From a virus (lineage: Duplodnaviria; Caudoviricetes), in IMG/VR virus record IMGVR_UViG_3300021400_000046, positions 1 through 64,000 of that record: a DNA stretch of 64,000 nt. One strand, given 5' to 3'. Below the pieces are notes generated by a model. It was not told the origin of the DNA and ran no database searches. It was given only the letters and a program-made list of their open reading frames with translations. Shown piece after piece: positions 10,220 through 39,344 of this stretch. The translations under genes and the position numbers were made by a program. Position 1 is the first letter of the stretch. Every line of letters begins with the position of its first letter.

Positions 10220-10260
10220 TTGGATTTTCCTCCTTAGATTTTCCAATTGATTTTCCGTTT

Positions 10261-10326
10261 TGGGCTGCCATCATCAGGCCGGATAGCCCATCTTCCGGCG
10301 ACGGGCATTTGCTGCCCGTTTCGGCA
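10261..10326 (-). ncRNA. Hammerhead ribozyme, type II with pseudoknot
   Basis: UGCC-GAAA-[III CGGGC/GCCCG]-UC|-[I GCCGGA/UCCGGC]-CUGAUGA-U-GGCA; loop I UGGGCU pairs with 3' AGCCCA; predicted cut between 10300 and 10299. Confidence 0.88.
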
Positions 10327-19370: not shown

Positions 19371-19447
19371 GGTCTTGTAGTTCAGAAGCGCAGAACGCCA
19401 GCCTGTCACGCTGGAGGTCACGGGTTCGAGTCCCGTCAAGATCGCCA
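19371..19447 (+). tRNA. tRNA-Asp(GTC)
   Basis: Acceptor GGTCTTG/CAAGATC, anticodon arm CCAGC-CTGTCAC-GCTGG, TTCGA T-loop, encoded CCA. Confidence 0.92.
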
Positions 19448-19521
19448 TTAAGGACTTACTTATAGTTTGTCTGAATAAAGGCTTCTGCTATTACTGTGCC
19501 GGAAAACAGAGTAGTAATTAT

Positions 19522-19609
19522 GGGTAGGTATAGCGTAATTGGTATCGCACCGGACTGTAAATCCGGCTCCTAACGGAAATTGTAGGTTCAAGTCCTACCC
19601 TGCCCACCA
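19522..19609 (+). tRNA. tRNA-Tyr(GTA)
   Basis: GGGTAGG/CCTGCCC, CCGGA-CTGTAAA-TCCGG, long variable arm, CCA. Confidence 0.88.
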
Positions 19610-19702
19610 TAAGATCGGCGTTAATGCTTGGGTAGCGAGGCGAAGTCATTGTATTAAATGCTGTGGGAGAAGTGTAATCCTGCCGAGTCGATCTTTATAT
19701 AT

Positions 19703-19778
19703 TCTCTCTTAGCTCAGTTGGTAGAGCGTCTGACTGTTAATCAGAATGTCGTTGGTTCGAGTCCAGCAGGGAGAGCCA
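19703..19778 (+). tRNA. tRNA-Asn(GTT)
   Basis: TCTCTCT/AGGGAGA, TCTGA-CTGTTAA-TCAGA, CCA. Confidence 0.93.
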
Positions 19779-20057
19779 TAGGCAGATGGAGCCTTAATCC
19801 ATTCTTTATGGGTAGTTATAGATGCTACATTGCGCAGATATGTCTTTGCGCCATATCCGTTGTCCTGTTGCAATAGGAGAAATTAAATGAGCCGCCGTAT
19901 CACCGAGGCAAGTTCGCAATATCGGGTAGCGTTTCCGGTATTTCGCCCCACCTACAACCTAATGGGCTTTTATCTATTGAGTAAACCGGTGTAAAAATTG
20001 TGGGTGCTGGTTGTAAATCCAGATAACAAAAGAACAGGCTTTTGTTATAAAAAATAT

Positions 20058-20133
20058 GCTGGTGTAGCTCAGTCGGTAGAGCAGCGGATTTGTAATCCGC
20101 AGGTCAGGGGTTCGAGTCCGTTCACCAGCTCCA
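20058..20133 (+). tRNA. tRNA-Thr(TGT)
   Basis: GCTGGTG/CACCAGC, GCGGA-TTTGTAA-TCCGC, CCA. Confidence 0.92.
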
Positions 20134-28939: not shown

Positions 28940-29005
28940 GTTTGGTAAAAAGATTTTTAGAATCTTTTTATATATGCAATTTGTGCGAAAGGTGGTGAGT
29001 GAGGA

Positions 29006-30214
29006 ATGAAAACATTTGAGATTTTTAGTGAAAATAAGAAAAGCGGAAAAAATGGTCGGCGTAAATTCAAGGTTATTTTATATAAGATTCAGCCAAACGA
29101 TTGCATTGATGAAGCAAATGGTGTCGGCAAAGAATATAACTTGAATGGCATTACATGGATTGAAGAATATTGTCAACAAGCAATCGAAAGCATTAAAGGT
29201 ATGTTCCTTCGTGTGGAATTTTTAGACGAGGAACGGACTGAATTATGTGGACATGGTTTGACCGACATTATTGATGGAGTGCCTATTTTTGAAAACGCGA
29301 CTTCAATCGGCGTATTTACTGATGGTTACATTGACGAAATAACTGATGAAAATGGCGAGAAGATTAAAGTCTGTATCGGCGTTGGAGAAATAGATAGTAG
29401 TTGTTATCACAATTTCTGTGAAAAACTGGATGATGATATTGCAAATGGGATTTATCCGCAAGGAAGCGTAGAAATTATGAAGTTACCTGATGCAGAAGGC
29501 ATTGAGTACAAATACGGCTACAAAGATAAAGGAAGAATCCCAACTAAATTCATTCACTCCGGCTATGCGCTTTTAGGTGTTAGACCGAGCGATAGCACCG
29601 CTAAATTGCTGGAACTAAATGAACACAAGGAGGAATTTAACATAATGACCGAAGAAGTCAAAACTCTAATTGAGCAGACTGTTGAGGCTTATACAAATCA
29701 CGTTGCTGAGATCAATCAGTGCAAGGCCGAATGCGAAGCTAAGATTGCTGAGTTAAACCAGACTGTTGAAAACTTGACAAATGAGATTAACGAATTAAAT
29801 GCGAGTTCTGCTCAGATTCAAGCTGCTCTGGATGAAAACAGAGCGGAGCGCGAAGGACTTGATAAGAAATATCAGGAACTTTGGGAGGAGGCCGAAGCTC
29901 TGCGCAAGGCTCTTGGTGAAGCCAAGGCAAAGGAGCGGATTGGCGAATTGAATGCCGCTATTGCTGAGTATTCAGATGAAGAACGTGCTTATGCCCAGGC
30001 TGAGATTGATGCTTTTAATGCTGATCCTGTTGCTTCTGAGATCAACACTGTTGTTGACAAAATTTTGATTGGCATTGGTAAGAAAGCCCGTGAAGTGGCT
30101 GCCAACGAAGCCGCTGCCGTTGTTGCCGAACAAAATGCGGCCAATGAGAGTGCAGAAGATATTTTTGGCGCTATTGAAACTGCTCCCGTTGTGGAAGATA
30201 CAAACATCTTTTAA
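29006..30214 (+). CDS. prohead protease-scaffold fusion
   Basis: N-terminal domain with GHG, GSVEI, GYALLG; C-terminal long acidic coiled coil; internal RBS and ATG at 29645. Confidence 0.7.
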   Translation: MKTFEIFSENKKSGKNGRRKFKVILYKIQPNDCIDEANGVGKEYNLNGITWIEEYCQQAIESIKGMFLRVEFLDEERTELCGHGLTDIIDGVPIFENATSIGVFTDGYIDEITDENGEKIKVCIGVGEIDSSCYHNFCEKLDDDIANGIYPQGSVEIMKLPDAEGIEYKYGYKDKGRIPTKFIHSGYALLGVRPSDSTAKLLELNEHKEEFNIMTEEVKTLIEQTVEAYTNHVAEINQCKAECEAKIAELNQTVENLTNEINELNASSAQIQAALDENRAEREGLDKKYQELWEEAEALRKALGEAKAKERIGELNAAIAEYSDEERAYAQAEIDAFNADPVASEINTVVDKILIGIGKKAREVAANEAAAVVAEQNAANESAEDIFGAIETAPVVEDTNIF

Positions 30215-30245
30215 TAAAAATAATATTTAGAAAGGAAATACGAAA

Positions 30246-31959
30246 ATGATTATTTGCACAATTTCAAATTGTGCATAGATAGTCCACCACATTATGAAAA
30301 TGTGTGGTGCAACCCTTTGAATTGCTGGGACACCCTTAGAGCTTTTCAGCTACAACATAACAATGAAAAATGTGTAAGTGTGAACGCATGAAAATGAAAA
30401 GATTGGGCAATCAGCAGCGAAGCTCCGAATAGGAGAACGTTCAACGACTATCGGCTGAAATGCCGTTAGGTAACAAGCGTTACCGAAGTGGAGGGCATCT
30501 AAACCATTTTTATGGCATGATGAAGATATAGTCTGGACTCATGTGAGAGCATGAGAAGTCTGTTGACTTGCACGGAGTAGCGAACCGTATTGTTTGTTTG
30601 TTTGTTTGGTAAAAGTGGGTGAAAAATATTAAAAAGAAAACACATGAGCAATTTCTAATTGAAATGTCTCAAAACCATCCAACTTTGATTGTATTAGATA
30701 AATATAAAAATGGTAGGACAAAAGTTAATTTAGAATGTTCTGTTTGTGGTTATCGTTTTGGCGCAACTCCTGGAAGTTTGTATATGAAGCATGGTTGTCC
30801 TAAATGTTCTGGTTCATTAAAGAAATCTACAAGTGAGTTTATTGAGGAATTGAGAATTGTTAATGATTCAATTACTGTTCTTGGCAATTACAAAAACAGC
30901 AAAACGGAAATAATGGTTTCTTGTAATAAATGTGGACACAAATGGGGCGCAACTCCAAATTCGTTGTTGAGCGGAAAAGGCTGTAGAGTGTGTGCAGGAA
31001 CAATGCCAAAAAGCCACGAACAGTTTATTACTGAGATGAAACAAAAACACCCAACGGTTAATGTTATTGGTAATTACATAAACAATCGTGAAAAAGTTGA
31101 ATGTAAATGTATGGTATGTGGCAAAACCTTTTATGGTATTCCACACGCAATGATAGACATGAACCATGATTGCCCATATTGTTCTATGTCGCAAGGAGAA
31201 CGTGCGATTAGTAATTGGCTTGATAATAATGGTTTTGTTTATTGCCAAGAGTATAGATTTACAGATTGTAAAGACATTAACCAATTACCATTTGATTTTT
31301 ATATTCCGTCTATTAACACAGTTATTGAGTATGATGGTGTTCAGCATTTTAAGGTAAATCAGTTTTTTGGTGGTAAGAAAGCATTTGATAAGCTGAAAAT
31401 CCATGACAAAATAAAAGATAATTATTGTTCTAAGAATGGGATTAACATTCTTAGGATTTCTTTTTATGACTACAAAAATATAAATGAAATATTAACAAAC
31501 AAACTAACAAATTGACAAACACATCGTAAAGTTGAAACTATCGGAATGCTGGATCGTGAAGTTCTGAATCCGGTTCTCACTTCTGATTCCGCTGTTGCTA
31601 ATTATTCTTTCCTTACCGTTGACGGTAAGCTGTATCTGATTGCCAATACTCTTGTTGGTGACGATTCTTACAAGGACGATTATACCATCCCCGCTGGTGA
31701 GTACCTGAACGGCCATCTGGTTGAGGCTTGGAAGGGTCAGAAACTTGTTATTGATGCGAAGCACATCACTTTCGGTCAGAGTGAGACTTATGCTAATTCT
31801 ATTACTGCTGGTACTACTTTGCTGAAGGTTGATTCTAATAACAAACTCGTGATTACCTCTACTGCTCCTACTTCTGGTGTGTATTTCAAGGTTACTGACA
31901 AATGCACTCTGACGGGTCAGGCTGTTAAGGCCGAAGTCCTTGTCGTTGATGCGGCCTAA
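30246..31959 (+). CDS. putative head decoration protein, spliced: join(30246..30250,31527..31959), 145 aa
   Basis: AGAAAGGA RBS; ATG AT|T AAA GTT GAA ACT ATC GGA ATG gives MIKVETIGMLDREVLNP...; lies between scaffold and major capsid; high-expression codon bias. Confidence 0.8.
30251..31526 (+). mobile_element. group I intron (IA-like)
   Basis: P AATTGCTGGGA, Q AATCAGCAGC, R TTCAACGACTA, S AAGATATAGTCT; P1 GAU|UAU pairs with AUAGUC with a U.G pair at the splice site; terminal G at 31526. Confidence 0.92.
30619..31515 (+). CDS. intron-encoded homing endonuclease (zinc-finger repeats + Vsr-like/EDxHD-type nuclease)
   Basis: Three KS/THEQF...CxxC..GCxxC repeats; C-terminal PFDFY...IEYDGVQH...D..K...C. 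Confidence 0.85.
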   Translation: MKNIKKKTHEQFLIEMSQNHPTLIVLDKYKNGRTKVNLECSVCGYRFGATPGSLYMKHGCPKCSGSLKKSTSEFIEELRIVNDSITVLGNYKNSKTEIMVSCNKCGHKWGATPNSLLSGKGCRVCAGTMPKSHEQFITEMKQKHPTVNVIGNYINNREKVECKCMVCGKTFYGIPHAMIDMNHDCPYCSMSQGERAISNWLDNNGFVYCQEYRFTDCKDINQLPFDFYIPSINTVIEYDGVQHFKVNQFFGGKKAFDKLKIHDKIKDNYCSKNGINILRISFYDYKNINEILTNKLTN

Positions 31960-31996
31960 TAGCATTAATTAACTTTATAGAAAGGAAACGAAAATA

Positions 31997-33118
31997 ATGA
32001 ATACTACATACGAACTGAACAATATTCGTAAGGACGCTGATCTGTTCGACGGTAAGTTTAACAAAACTTCCCCCGTTGTTGAAGTGTTCGCTGCTATGAC
32101 CAATGGTGAGTCCCTTAACCGTTTTGGTGCGAAGGCCGACAAGGCTGTGGCGTATATCAAGGAGCTTGGCTCTCGCGCTGATAATGGCGATCCCGTTGCC
32201 GTTGCCGAACTGAATACCATTCGTCGGTTTGTGATTGAAACTCCTATCCTGGAAGAAATGAAGCTGCTTGGTATTTTCGGTTCTTACCAGAATGTTGGTT
32301 ATGATGAAAGCATTGAGCGCGAGATTTATACTCATGTTGGTGAAATGTCTCGTGAGCAGGCTGCTGGTGGCGACGTTGTGTTCCCTGCCATCACTAAGGA
32401 AACCTATCCTGTTGGTACTACTACCGTCTCTGGCGGTTATGCCGTTGATTATCGTCGGGTTGCGCTTGGCGATATGAGCAAGGAAAACGAAGGTCTTGCT
32501 ATGGTTAAGACTGACATCCGCAATAAGGCTGTTCTATACGTTATTAACAAGGTTTATAACGCGATTAAGAACGCTACTGGTGTTAAGTATCAGGCTGAGT
32601 TTGCTGGTCTAACTAAGGCCGGTGTCGATGCTATTCTGAACGCTGTGCGCAGAAACGGTAAGCCTACTGTTGTTGCTGATTATGCTATCCTGTCTCAGTT
32701 TACCCCGTGGGCTGGCTACAAGGGTTCTATTGACAACACTACTATTACCGGTATGTCTCAGAAGGTTATGGACGAGCTGGCTGCTAATGGCGCTCTGTCT
32801 ATGTACAATGGCGCTGTCTTGGCCGAGCTGCCGAATCCTTACAACGAGTATGATATGAGCGGTTCCTGGACTCCTGATGGCGGCACTACCACTCTGCCTA
32901 ACTTCAAGACCCTGCTTCCTGCCGGTCTGGCTTTTGTTGTCCCTGCTGGCGTTAAGTCTCCTATCGCTACCTGGACTCGTGGTGGTCTGACTTCTGTGAC
33001 CGGTACTAACGTTAAGAACGGTAAGTATGAGACTCGCTTCGACCTCGAAGTTGCCGCTGATGTGGCGAAGGGTCAGGAGCATCGTATTGGTTGCTTCAAG
33101 GACACCAATATCGGCTAA
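31997..33118 (+). CDS. major capsid protein
   Basis: 373 aa, strongest codon bias, position after scaffold and decoration genes. Confidence 0.8.
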   Translation: MNTTYELNNIRKDADLFDGKFNKTSPVVEVFAAMTNGESLNRFGAKADKAVAYIKELGSRADNGDPVAVAELNTIRRFVIETPILEEMKLLGIFGSYQNVGYDESIEREIYTHVGEMSREQAAGGDVVFPAITKETYPVGTTTVSGGYAVDYRRVALGDMSKENEGLAMVKTDIRNKAVLYVINKVYNAIKNATGVKYQAEFAGLTKAGVDAILNAVRRNGKPTVVADYAILSQFTPWAGYKGSIDNTTITGMSQKVMDELAANGALSMYNGAVLAELPNPYNEYDMSGSWTPDGGTTTLPNFKTLLPAGLAFVVPAGVKSPIATWTRGGLTSVTGTNVKNGKYETRFDLEVAADVAKGQEHRIGCFKDTNIG

Positions 33119-33168
33119 TTCAATAATAGAGTTTGCAAATAGTTATTTGTATCTTTATTGACATAAAT

Positions 33169-33192
33169 GGGACACCGTATTAACGGTGTCCC
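33169..33192 (+). terminator. hairpin or terminator after major capsid gene
   Basis: GGGACACCGT-ATTA-ACGGTGTCCC. Confidence 0.65.
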
Positions 33193-33220
33193 TATCTATA
33201 AATAACGCAGGAGAAATCAA

Positions 33221-38743: not shown

Positions 38744-38789
38744 AAGGATAGTTTTATCATAGAAGATTAGTTAGAAAGGAAACATAAAA

Positions 38790-39344
38790 ATGATTGAATA
38801 CAAGAATAAGATTGAATTAGCTGAATTTTTGGCAATTTCCGAAATTATTGCCGATGGGTATTTCGATGAAACCGGTGCTTATGCGCCGCATTATGGCATT
38901 ATGAATGCCTATCGAGTTTTTTACAATGTGTGTGTTACAAAGAGTCCATACGATGAAACTTATGGACACAATATTATCAATATCGAAGAACTGAGCGAGA
39001 TCGTTTCTGACGATGAATTTGTTACTAAGTTTGAAACTTGCGTCAATAGTGGCAAGCAAGGTTTGACTTTTAGTGCTGCCTTCAATAATGCTATGCAGAT
39101 GGTTGATGCCAGAAAGTCCTCTATCGGTTCTGCTGTAACCATGATTGTTGATGCAATCCAGGGCATTGCTGACCGAGCTAAAAACGTTATGAGTGACGAG
39201 AATATGCAGCATATCGCGTCAATTGCAAAGGATATTGGTAACGGTAAAATTACCGCAGATGATATTGTGAATGCATATGGTAAGCAGCTCGAAGAAAAGG
39301 CTGGCAAGATTAGTGTTGTTTCGGATAAAAAGGTAGAGGATTAA
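38790..39344 (+). CDS. hypothetical protein (possible tail assembly chaperone)
   Basis: 184-aa ORF; position. Confidence 0.55.
   Translation: MIEYKNKIELAEFLAISEIIADGYFDETGAYAPHYGIMNAYRVFYNVCVTKSPYDETYGHNIINIEELSEIVSDDEFVTKFETCVNSGKQGLTFSAAFNNAMQMVDARKSSIGSAVTMIVDAIQGIADRAKNVMSDENMQHIASIAKDIGNGKITADDIVNAYGKQLEEKAGKISVVSDKKVED

Follow-up and report, generated by a model that had tools for sequence, protein, structure and literature searches.

How can a phage head gene be expressed when its start codon and the body of its reading frame lie more than a kilobase apart? The question arises in the window, by which we mean the whole 64,000-nucleotide stretch of viral DNA analysed here, where the ATG at 30246 opens a frame of ten codons and the conserved frame continues far downstream. 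We consider it very probable that both belong to a single capsid decoration gene that is interrupted in its second codon by a mobile group I intron of the ordinary kind, IA in type and T4-like in architecture. The position of the intron, beside the ribosome-binding site, raises the further question of whether it does anything there for the phage.

The Rfam group I intron model (RF00028) matches the + strand at 30251-30555, scoring 78.1 bits where the gathering score is 50 (E 3.9e-18), and the match covers the full model, positions 1-253. The boundaries of the element as a whole come from loci L001-L009, which have no insert and read ATGAT-TAAAGTT at the site. TA occurs at both junctions, so the DNA comparison leaves an uncertainty of 2 nt in the boundaries, and we chose 30251..31526 because of the group I rule that the exon ends in U and the intron in G. 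This gives the following parts:

30246 to 30250, + strand: ATGAT, the part of exon 1 that is coding and consists of the start codon plus two nucleotides of codon 2
30251 to 31526, + strand: group I intron, 1276 nt, having an IA-type core with P7.1 and P7.2, based on Rfam, the intron-less alleles and covariation
31526, + strand: omega-G, the last nucleotide of the intron, every variant of which ends in AUCG
31527 to 31959, + strand: exon 2 of the decoration/cement protein gene, for which the full CDS is join(30246..30250, 31527..31959), 145 aa

When 30250 is joined to 31527, the product is a 145-aa protein starting MIKVETIGMLD, which is 100% identical to P0001, a protein that the intron-less loci L001-L005 encode in one uninterrupted frame. 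The predicted removal of the intron therefore restores an uninterrupted, conserved frame, and on comparison with the intron-less alleles the insertion point is between nucleotides 2 and 3 of codon 2 of the decoration/cement gene. The first-pass annotation, working from the letters of the window, had proposed a group I intron with this junction, a coding exon 1 of 5 nt, a requirement for splicing to produce the conserved N-terminus, and an unspliced RNA that encodes MIICTISNCA-stop, and had advised looking for intron-less alleles in relatives. All of these proposals agree with what we found, the alleles in L001-L009 having the same gene order and the unspliced frame ending here:

30276 to 30278, + strand: in-frame UAG that ends unspliced translation after 10 codons, located in the 3' strand of P1

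Upstream of ATG 30246, an in-frame TAG is found at 18 nt. At the RNA level, exon 1 extends 5' of this ATG into the operon transcript.

To examine the fold, we aligned six sequences, drawn from five lineages with an intron at this site, and ran RNAalifold on the alignment; the P7 pseudoknot was added by hand and the pairs were then counted. The prediction for the six sequences contains P1, P2, P3-P6, P7.1, P7.2, P8, P9 and P9.1. Over 88 pairs, 96.8% of the cells are paired, compared to 33-41% when the partners are slid, and compensatory changes occur in 41 of the 88 pairs, compared to 3-9 in the slid controls, with P1, P2 and the P7 pseudoknot among them. None of 500 shuffles reached the observed pairing values. 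In the six sequences, the helices from P3 to P9, including the P3/P7 pseudoknot, are kept by compensatory changes, and in the shortest intron (L019) P7 carries a compensatory GACCA/UGGUC in place of GACUA/UAGUC. The elements of the fold other than P1 are:

30285 to 30309, + strand: P2 hairpin, with compensatory changes in 7 of 10 pairs
30446 to 30450, + strand: P7 5' strand, GACUA, whose partner is 30529-30533 in the pseudoknot helix
about 30452 to 30484, + strand: P7.1 and P7.2, between P7 and P3', with 1 and 4 compensatory pairs
30529 to 30533, + strand: P7 3' strand, UAGUC, 100% paired
30538 to 30569, + strand: hairpins P9 and P9.1, where the catalytic core ends, with 3 and 4 compensatory pairs
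30590 to 30611, + strand: 5' strand of a long-range helix (RNAduplex) that closes the loop containing the nuclease gene
31490 to 31510, + strand: 3' strand of the long-range helix (RNAduplex), overlapping the final codons of the nuclease ORF

Based on the extra helices P7.1 and P7.2, the intron is probably a member of subgroup IA, the T4-like subgroup. The RNAduplex energy of the long-range helix, 30590-30611 with 31490-31510, is -17.1 kcal/mol; equivalent helices that differ from it in sequence, with energies of -13 to -16 kcal/mol, are found in L010, L018, L079 and L020, and the helix is absent from L019, which has no ORF. P10 has at most 2 bp.

What does the interrupted gene encode? Searching with the downstream frame gave 473 homologues, and MIK-x-ET-x-GM is the beginning of all the full-length ones that were retrieved. 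When 75 of the full-length homologues are aligned, M1 and E5 are invariant, and I2, K3, T6, G8 and M9 are each conserved in at least 90%. Pfam and PHROGs returned nothing for this protein. Its AlphaFold model, built from the 75 homologues (pLDDT 91.1, pTM 0.85), has the first eight residues as an N-terminal strand, and its best structural matches are the decoration proteins Sf11 (Z 9.0, 122 aligned) and the capsid-stabilizing protein of TW1 (5wk1_X, Z 8.8, 121 aligned). The matches that follow are all to capsid-associated chains, E217, FCWL1, Pam3 and phi29 gp8.5 among them, and the titles of several of these entries mention decorating proteins or a head fibre; the Foldseek E-values are weak, 0.03-0.1. 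The gene order at all loci is portal, YonD-like, decoration gene, YonB-type capsid gene. Judged by its predicted fold, the product is a capsid decoration or cement protein, a more precise name for what had been called a head gene. In proteins of the lambda gpD type, an N-terminal arm touches the capsid protein. Such a contact would fit the eight residues that splicing is predicted to restore, given how strongly they are conserved. These same eight residues are missing from the calls in many contigs, where gene callers truncate the gene, as anticipated in the first-pass annotation, and report proteins of 137, 133 or 139 aa starting from an internal Met.

The truncated calls bring up an alternative, in which the intron is dead and stays in the RNA, and the functional product is the 137-aa protein from Met 31546. 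The ORF at 31546-31959 is indeed open downstream of the intron, and Met9 is conserved in the family, but we regard this alternative as highly improbable. It would cost the protein eight residues that rank with the most conserved in the 75 homologues and that the model shows as an N-terminal strand. The ribozyme core is intact, with every helix maintained by compensatory changes. The ATG at 31546 is directly preceded by GGA and has no usable Shine-Dalgarno, in contrast to ATG 30246, which is served by the leader motif of the capsid gene:

30228 to 30237, + strand: leader/Shine-Dalgarno motif TAGAAAGGAA, 8 nt 5' of ATG 30246

There are 3 copies of TAGAAAGGAA in the window, compared to 0.23 expected, and each is 8-9 nt before an ATG (30246, 31997 and 38790). 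ATG 31997 is the start of the major capsid gene, and the leader motif is thus common to the capsid and decoration genes.

With the gene and its start assigned, the relation of the ribozyme to the start codon can be described through P1:

30248 to 30284, + strand: P1, found by RNAalifold unprompted, with an exon part that is invariant in 6 of 6 sequences

The exon part consists of G30248-C30284, A30249-U30283 and the wobble U30250.G30282 at the splice site, which is U.G in all 6 sequences, and the guide sequence AUAGUC is at 30279-30284. Beyond the exon, P1 continues with four pairs within the intron, followed by a bulge of 2 nt and an extension hairpin of 9 bp, and the energy of the P1 hairpin as a whole is -14.0 kcal/mol. 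The extension covaries; the exon part, being just 3 bp and invariant, has no covariation support of its own. P1 had been said to pair nucleotides of the start codon; G 30248 is the sole paired base of that codon, and the A and U of the AUG, like the Shine-Dalgarno, are unpaired in the precursor. The spliced mRNA has only weak structure around the start. In all six variants the unspliced frame stops after 6-15 codons. [quoted passage not shown] A scan of 29900-32100 for sigma-70 promoters and terminators gave 9, compared to 6.4 +/- 2.6 by chance, which is no excess.

Downstream of the catalytic core, the intron contains a long ORF:

30619 to 31515, + strand: predicted homing-endonuclease gene, 298 aa from a GTG, based on PHROG, Pfam and fold

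An in-frame ATT at 30628 would fit the N-termini of the homologues better than the GTG. The ORF matches PHROG 559 (1.5e-78), which PHROGs label 'HNH endonuclease', and has Pfam matches to CapR/DUF4379; at least 698 homologues were found. The AF2 model (pLDDT 92.9) has three repeats of a helix plus a zinc ribbon followed by a C-terminal domain, residues 190-298, which aligns with Vsr (1cw0; Z 11.8, rmsd 2.2, 102 aligned) and with I-Bth0305I (3r3p; Z 11.7, rmsd 2.5 A, 91 of 97 residues). Residues E194, D226, E237, H243 and D263 are invariant in 42 nuclease homologues and are candidates for the composite catalytic motif (E, D, H, D) of the EDxHD nucleases. The N-terminal NUMOD/HTH region is absent, with the three zinc-ribbon modules in its place, and sequence and profile searches of the PDB with the intron ORF reached no nuclease structure, I-Bth0305I included. 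We therefore describe the ORF as Vsr/EDxHD-like by fold, which is short of proven family membership, and its probable nuclease activity and target are likewise read from the modelled fold. By analogy with I-Bth0305I, which has a footprint of ~60 bp (PMC3239194), a homing site that spans the ribosome-binding site and UTR, as suggested in the first-pass annotation, is plausible. An intact nuclease ORF is retained in four diverged lineages with 47-62% amino acid identity.

Five diverged phage lineages have an intron at exactly this site. Apart from the window and its close relatives (L010, 75.4 bits; L011, 78.1 bits in Rfam), these are L018 (1253 nt, 92.3 bits), L020 (1306 nt, 73.4 bits), L019 (369 nt, 59.4 bits, no ORF), and L079, which has the same 1279-nt intron as L068. 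The L079/L068 intron is not reported by Rfam at the gathering threshold; its core is 77-87% identical to the other cores and fits the same structure. Further introns at the site were reached through truncated homologues of the decoration protein. Junction patterns of 16-17 nt in IMG/VR retrieved 80 and 86 loci, and tblastn showed that 4 and ~19 of these are real homologues, the rest being chance matches. Across lineages, identities are 76-87% for the cores, 48-67% for the host proteins and 47-62% for the nucleases. Recent transfer between distant lineages, which we looked for, is not evident, as intron, nuclease and host gene diverge roughly in parallel. Given this parallel divergence, mobility is seen only as polymorphism within a population.

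Within the population of the window, the intron is present in the window and L010-L016 and absent from L001-L009, of which L006-L009 encode a 99% variant of P0001. Each of the two downstream flank haplotypes is found in an intron-plus and an intron-minus form, which is what a mobile element should produce. In one haplotype, all 4 of the sampled intron-less alleles (L006-L009) share a synonymous substitution, A to G, at a distance of 4 nt from the insertion site. Counting protein clusters that are at least 97% identical to the window protein, the 137-aa calls of intron carriers make up 10 clusters (~54 contigs) and the 145-aa calls of intron-less loci make up 8 clusters (~23 contigs). Animal-gut metagenomes of at least seven further studies, bovine and goat ones among them, contain DNA that is nearly identical. 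The virus record is complete at 149,631 bp with terminal repeats, and this is the only group I intron in the genome. The boundaries of the intron, its conserved ribozyme fold and its site-specific presence/absence polymorphism are thus all supported by comparison among alleles and lineages.

A near-identity search of public phage genomes found no relative of the phage and a single core match of 143 nt (82%, P3-P6), in the split RNA-polymerase beta gene of Serratia phage vB_SmaM_2050HW. This presumed intron is not annotated as such, and an endonuclease gene lies between the parts of the beta gene. The host gene, the phage group and the position of the nuclease all differ from ours, and the core is alike only in part. 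The Serratia setting reportedly resembles that of an interference case, intron nuclease gp210 of PhiPA3. Interference of gp210 with a co-infecting phage has been shown (bioRxiv 10.1101/2023.09.30.560319), and one could accordingly ask if our intron serves as a weapon, its nuclease cutting the start of the decoration gene in co-infecting intron-less relatives and so disturbing their late gene expression. An intact nuclease ORF conserved in four lineages, intron-plus and intron-minus populations mixed in the same kinds of samples, and a nearest public core match that sits in a split, endonuclease-containing polymerase gene of a Serratia jumbo phage would all agree with this. However, the same observations are compatible with plain homing, from which such a weapon is indistinguishable, and the ORF-less L019 intron persists without any nuclease, so we consider a role as a weapon unlikely.

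We compared four metatranscriptome runs with 29000-33200. Only one RNA contig, in X16, has a ligated junction, joining 30250 to 31527. It differs from the window by 30185 C>T, one base inserted after 30215, and five changes downstream, and the intron-less DNA alleles L008/L009 show precisely this set of differences. The contig therefore most likely comes from an intron-less phage and is uninformative on splicing. No RNA contig in the four runs covers the intron.

Taking the mobile intron as the preferred reading, expression of the gene would proceed as follows. On the late operon transcript, P1 would form once ~35 nt beyond the AUG had been made, the exon GAU pairing with the guide GUC and setting the U.G wobble at the splice site. 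The core (to 30555) would then fold, and guanosine would attack after U30250. The long-range helix would loop out the 0.9-kb nuclease gene and bring the tail, ...AUCG, and the G-binding site of P7 together, and exon ligation would give AUGAU-UAAAGUU..., an mRNA for the 145-aa protein with its first eight residues as the conserved N-terminal arm. Ribosomes on unspliced RNA would make a 10-residue peptide, stop at the UAG in P1 and so be kept out of the core. The nuclease, with its zinc ribbons and Vsr/EDxHD-like domain, would cut intron-less alleles of co-infecting relatives near the site, and repair of the cut allele would copy the intron in, which is homing.

The position of P1 suggests another possibility, raised in the first-pass annotation, that of a translational gate, in which 30S loading and P1 formation are mutually exclusive and splicing delays or sets the level of decoration protein relative to capsid protein. 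A hairpin of -14 kcal/mol that begins inside the start codon, with the Shine-Dalgarno free and the spliced mRNA weakly structured, is a layout in which competition between ribosome and P1 is physically likely. Five diverged lineages share this layout, one of them having lost the nuclease gene, and the intron is the sole one in a complete 149.6-kb genome. Control of translation by a group I element also has precedents, in the Clostridioides difficile riboswitch-ribozyme and the engineered SIBR td intron (PMC8565351). On the other hand, the same population commonly has alleles that lack the intron and are identical in protein and flanks (~23 versus ~54 contigs), which indicates that the phage does well without the intron; conservation of the site is expected anyway from a site-specific homing nuclease; and no ligand-sensing or switch element is seen. 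We thus doubt that the intron acts as a gate, which is a slightly poorer prospect than the weapon, and give the same low weight to the fuller version of the idea, that the intron is kept at codon 2 as a kinetic gate in which P1 and the ribosome compete for the same 20 nucleotides and the nuclease reads the ribosome-binding site. If a kinetic gate of this type did exist, evolution of the ribosome-binding site would be tied to intron mobility through the nuclease. A regulatory role is unnecessary, as an ordinary selfish mobile intron accounts for all of the data.

Much of the architecture is familiar from T4. The td, nrdB and nrdD (sunY) introns of T4, which are IA2, also have P7.1/P7.2 between P7 and P3'. 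As here, T4 introns have an in-frame stop soon after the 5' splice site and a nuclease ORF that is looped out of the core, the end of the ORF overlapping RNA structure (PMC3073962, PMC2988022). In-frame stops just past the 5' junction and effects of ribosomes on splicing are known for phage group I introns in general, as are ORFs within the intron that have weak starts (PMC3073962). Unlike our intron in codon 2 of a decoration gene, the T4 introns are in genes of nucleotide metabolism and far from the start codon, and their nucleases are GIY-YIG or HNH, whereas the nuclease here is Vsr-like by fold. The closest parallel to the nuclease is I-Bth0305I (EDxHD), from the recA intron of Bacillus thuringiensis phage 0305phi8-36, which is bipartite with a C-terminal Vsr-like domain, as here; it has two NUMOD/HTH motifs where ours has three zinc-ribbon (DUF4379/CapR) modules (PMC3239194). 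The I-Bth0305I ORF is in P5, in contrast to the one here after P9, and no similarity between the two nucleases is detectable at the sequence level.

Introns in the capsid gene of mycobacteriophage LittleE, the tail gene of BAKA and the capsid gene of lactococcal phage Tuc2009 reportedly interrupt the gene body. Like ours, they are of group I and are found in structural genes of tailed phages that are highly expressed; some have a nuclease ORF and some do not, and their splicing was demonstrated by RT-PCR (PMC3706429). The statement in the first-pass annotation that phage introns are mostly in DNA-metabolism, terminase or lysin genes needs a qualifier, given these documented capsid and tail cases (PMC3706429). 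In contrast to ours, no report places any of the three introns in codon 2 or in contact with the start codon, and in our literature search we found no paper that describes a phage intron in codon 2. The nearest analogues by position are found elsewhere. The c-di-GMP-II riboswitch/ribozyme of C. difficile is a group I element in the translation-initiation region whose splicing decides the arrangement of ribosome-binding site and start codon (PMC8565351), although, unlike our intron, it is in the 5' UTR between the ribosome-binding site and the start codon, allosteric, chromosomal, immobile and without a nuclease gene. SIBR, an engineered T4 td intron placed after the ATG, shares with our intron the location at the start of the CDS, an unspliced peptide of few residues and the need for splicing (PMC8565351); unlike ours, it is synthetic, retains a tag of four flanking codons and is controlled by an added theophylline aptamer.

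Although this kind of element is well known, its position beside the ribosome-binding site is unusual. One practical consequence is that the decoration gene is systematically mis-called in this group of animal-gut phages, leaving a 1.3-kb gap with a 'zinc-finger protein' unexplained. The locus is also a natural case in which the substrate helix of a ribozyme begins inside the start codon, and is thus a counterpart of the engineered intron switches. Together, the intron-less alleles and the natural 369-nt ORF-less relative make a convenient system for studying splicing versus translation initiation in bacteria. Finally, the intron provides context for a very large protein family, with three zinc ribbons and a Vsr-like domain, that is mislabelled as HNH in PHROGs, and suggests that the members of this family are homing endonucleases.

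At the same insertion site in the decoration gene, one diverged phage lineage carries a natural intron of only 369 nt (L019:73-441) that has no nuclease ORF, and it also lacks the long-range helix found on either side of that ORF in the other lineages. The nuclease ORF and the long-range helix seem to be gained or lost together, as one cassette. Another diverged lineage, L020, is the only one whose intron has a 25-nt insertion in the P5/P6 peripheral region (columns 174-198 of the intron alignment, A4); judging by its sequence, the insertion could fold into a small hairpin.

The nuclease ORF of the window's intron (start region 30619-30630) opens with a GTG immediately preceded by a GGG run. 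An alternative in-frame start, ATT at 30628 with GGGUGA 5 nt ahead, would give an N-terminus like that of the homologues (M-R/K-R/K-K-T). The start is weak under both options, and weak starts are usual in intron ORFs.

Four nucleotides downstream of the insertion site, at the position matching 31530 of the window, a synonymous AAA to AAG change occurs in L006-L009 (position 3009), intron-less loci of related phages. All four sampled intron-less alleles of this flank haplotype have AAG; an A stands at this site in phages with the intron and in the second haplotype without it. The A-to-G change may be a marker of nuclease resistance or of co-conversion.

The IMG/VR contig L050 has two decoration-gene homologues about 5 kb apart (6603-6196 and 1329-898, both on the minus strand), one with an intron-type junction, the contig end falling within the nuclease ORF, and the other uninterrupted.

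In the Serratia jumbo phage 2050HW, an unannotated stretch (MF285618.1, 96984-97127; locus L189:2501-2644) has 82% identity to the P3-P6 region of the window intron. It has a CDS labelled "RNA polymerase beta subunit" on each side, adjoins a "putative endonuclease", and is probably an intron missed in annotation. The same P3-P6 match is present in phages Haymo and vB_ParM-25.

Other RNA elements in the window are:

10259-10326, minus strand, type II hammerhead ribozyme (Rfam 48.7 bits; gathering score 37)
19371-20130, plus strand, four clustered tRNA genes (Rfam 43-69 bits)

The stretch 38772-38790 holds a third copy of the Shine-Dalgarno-type leader motif, TAGAAAGGAA, 8 nt ahead of the ATG of a 184-aa ORF. 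The motif probably marks the late genes with the strongest translation.
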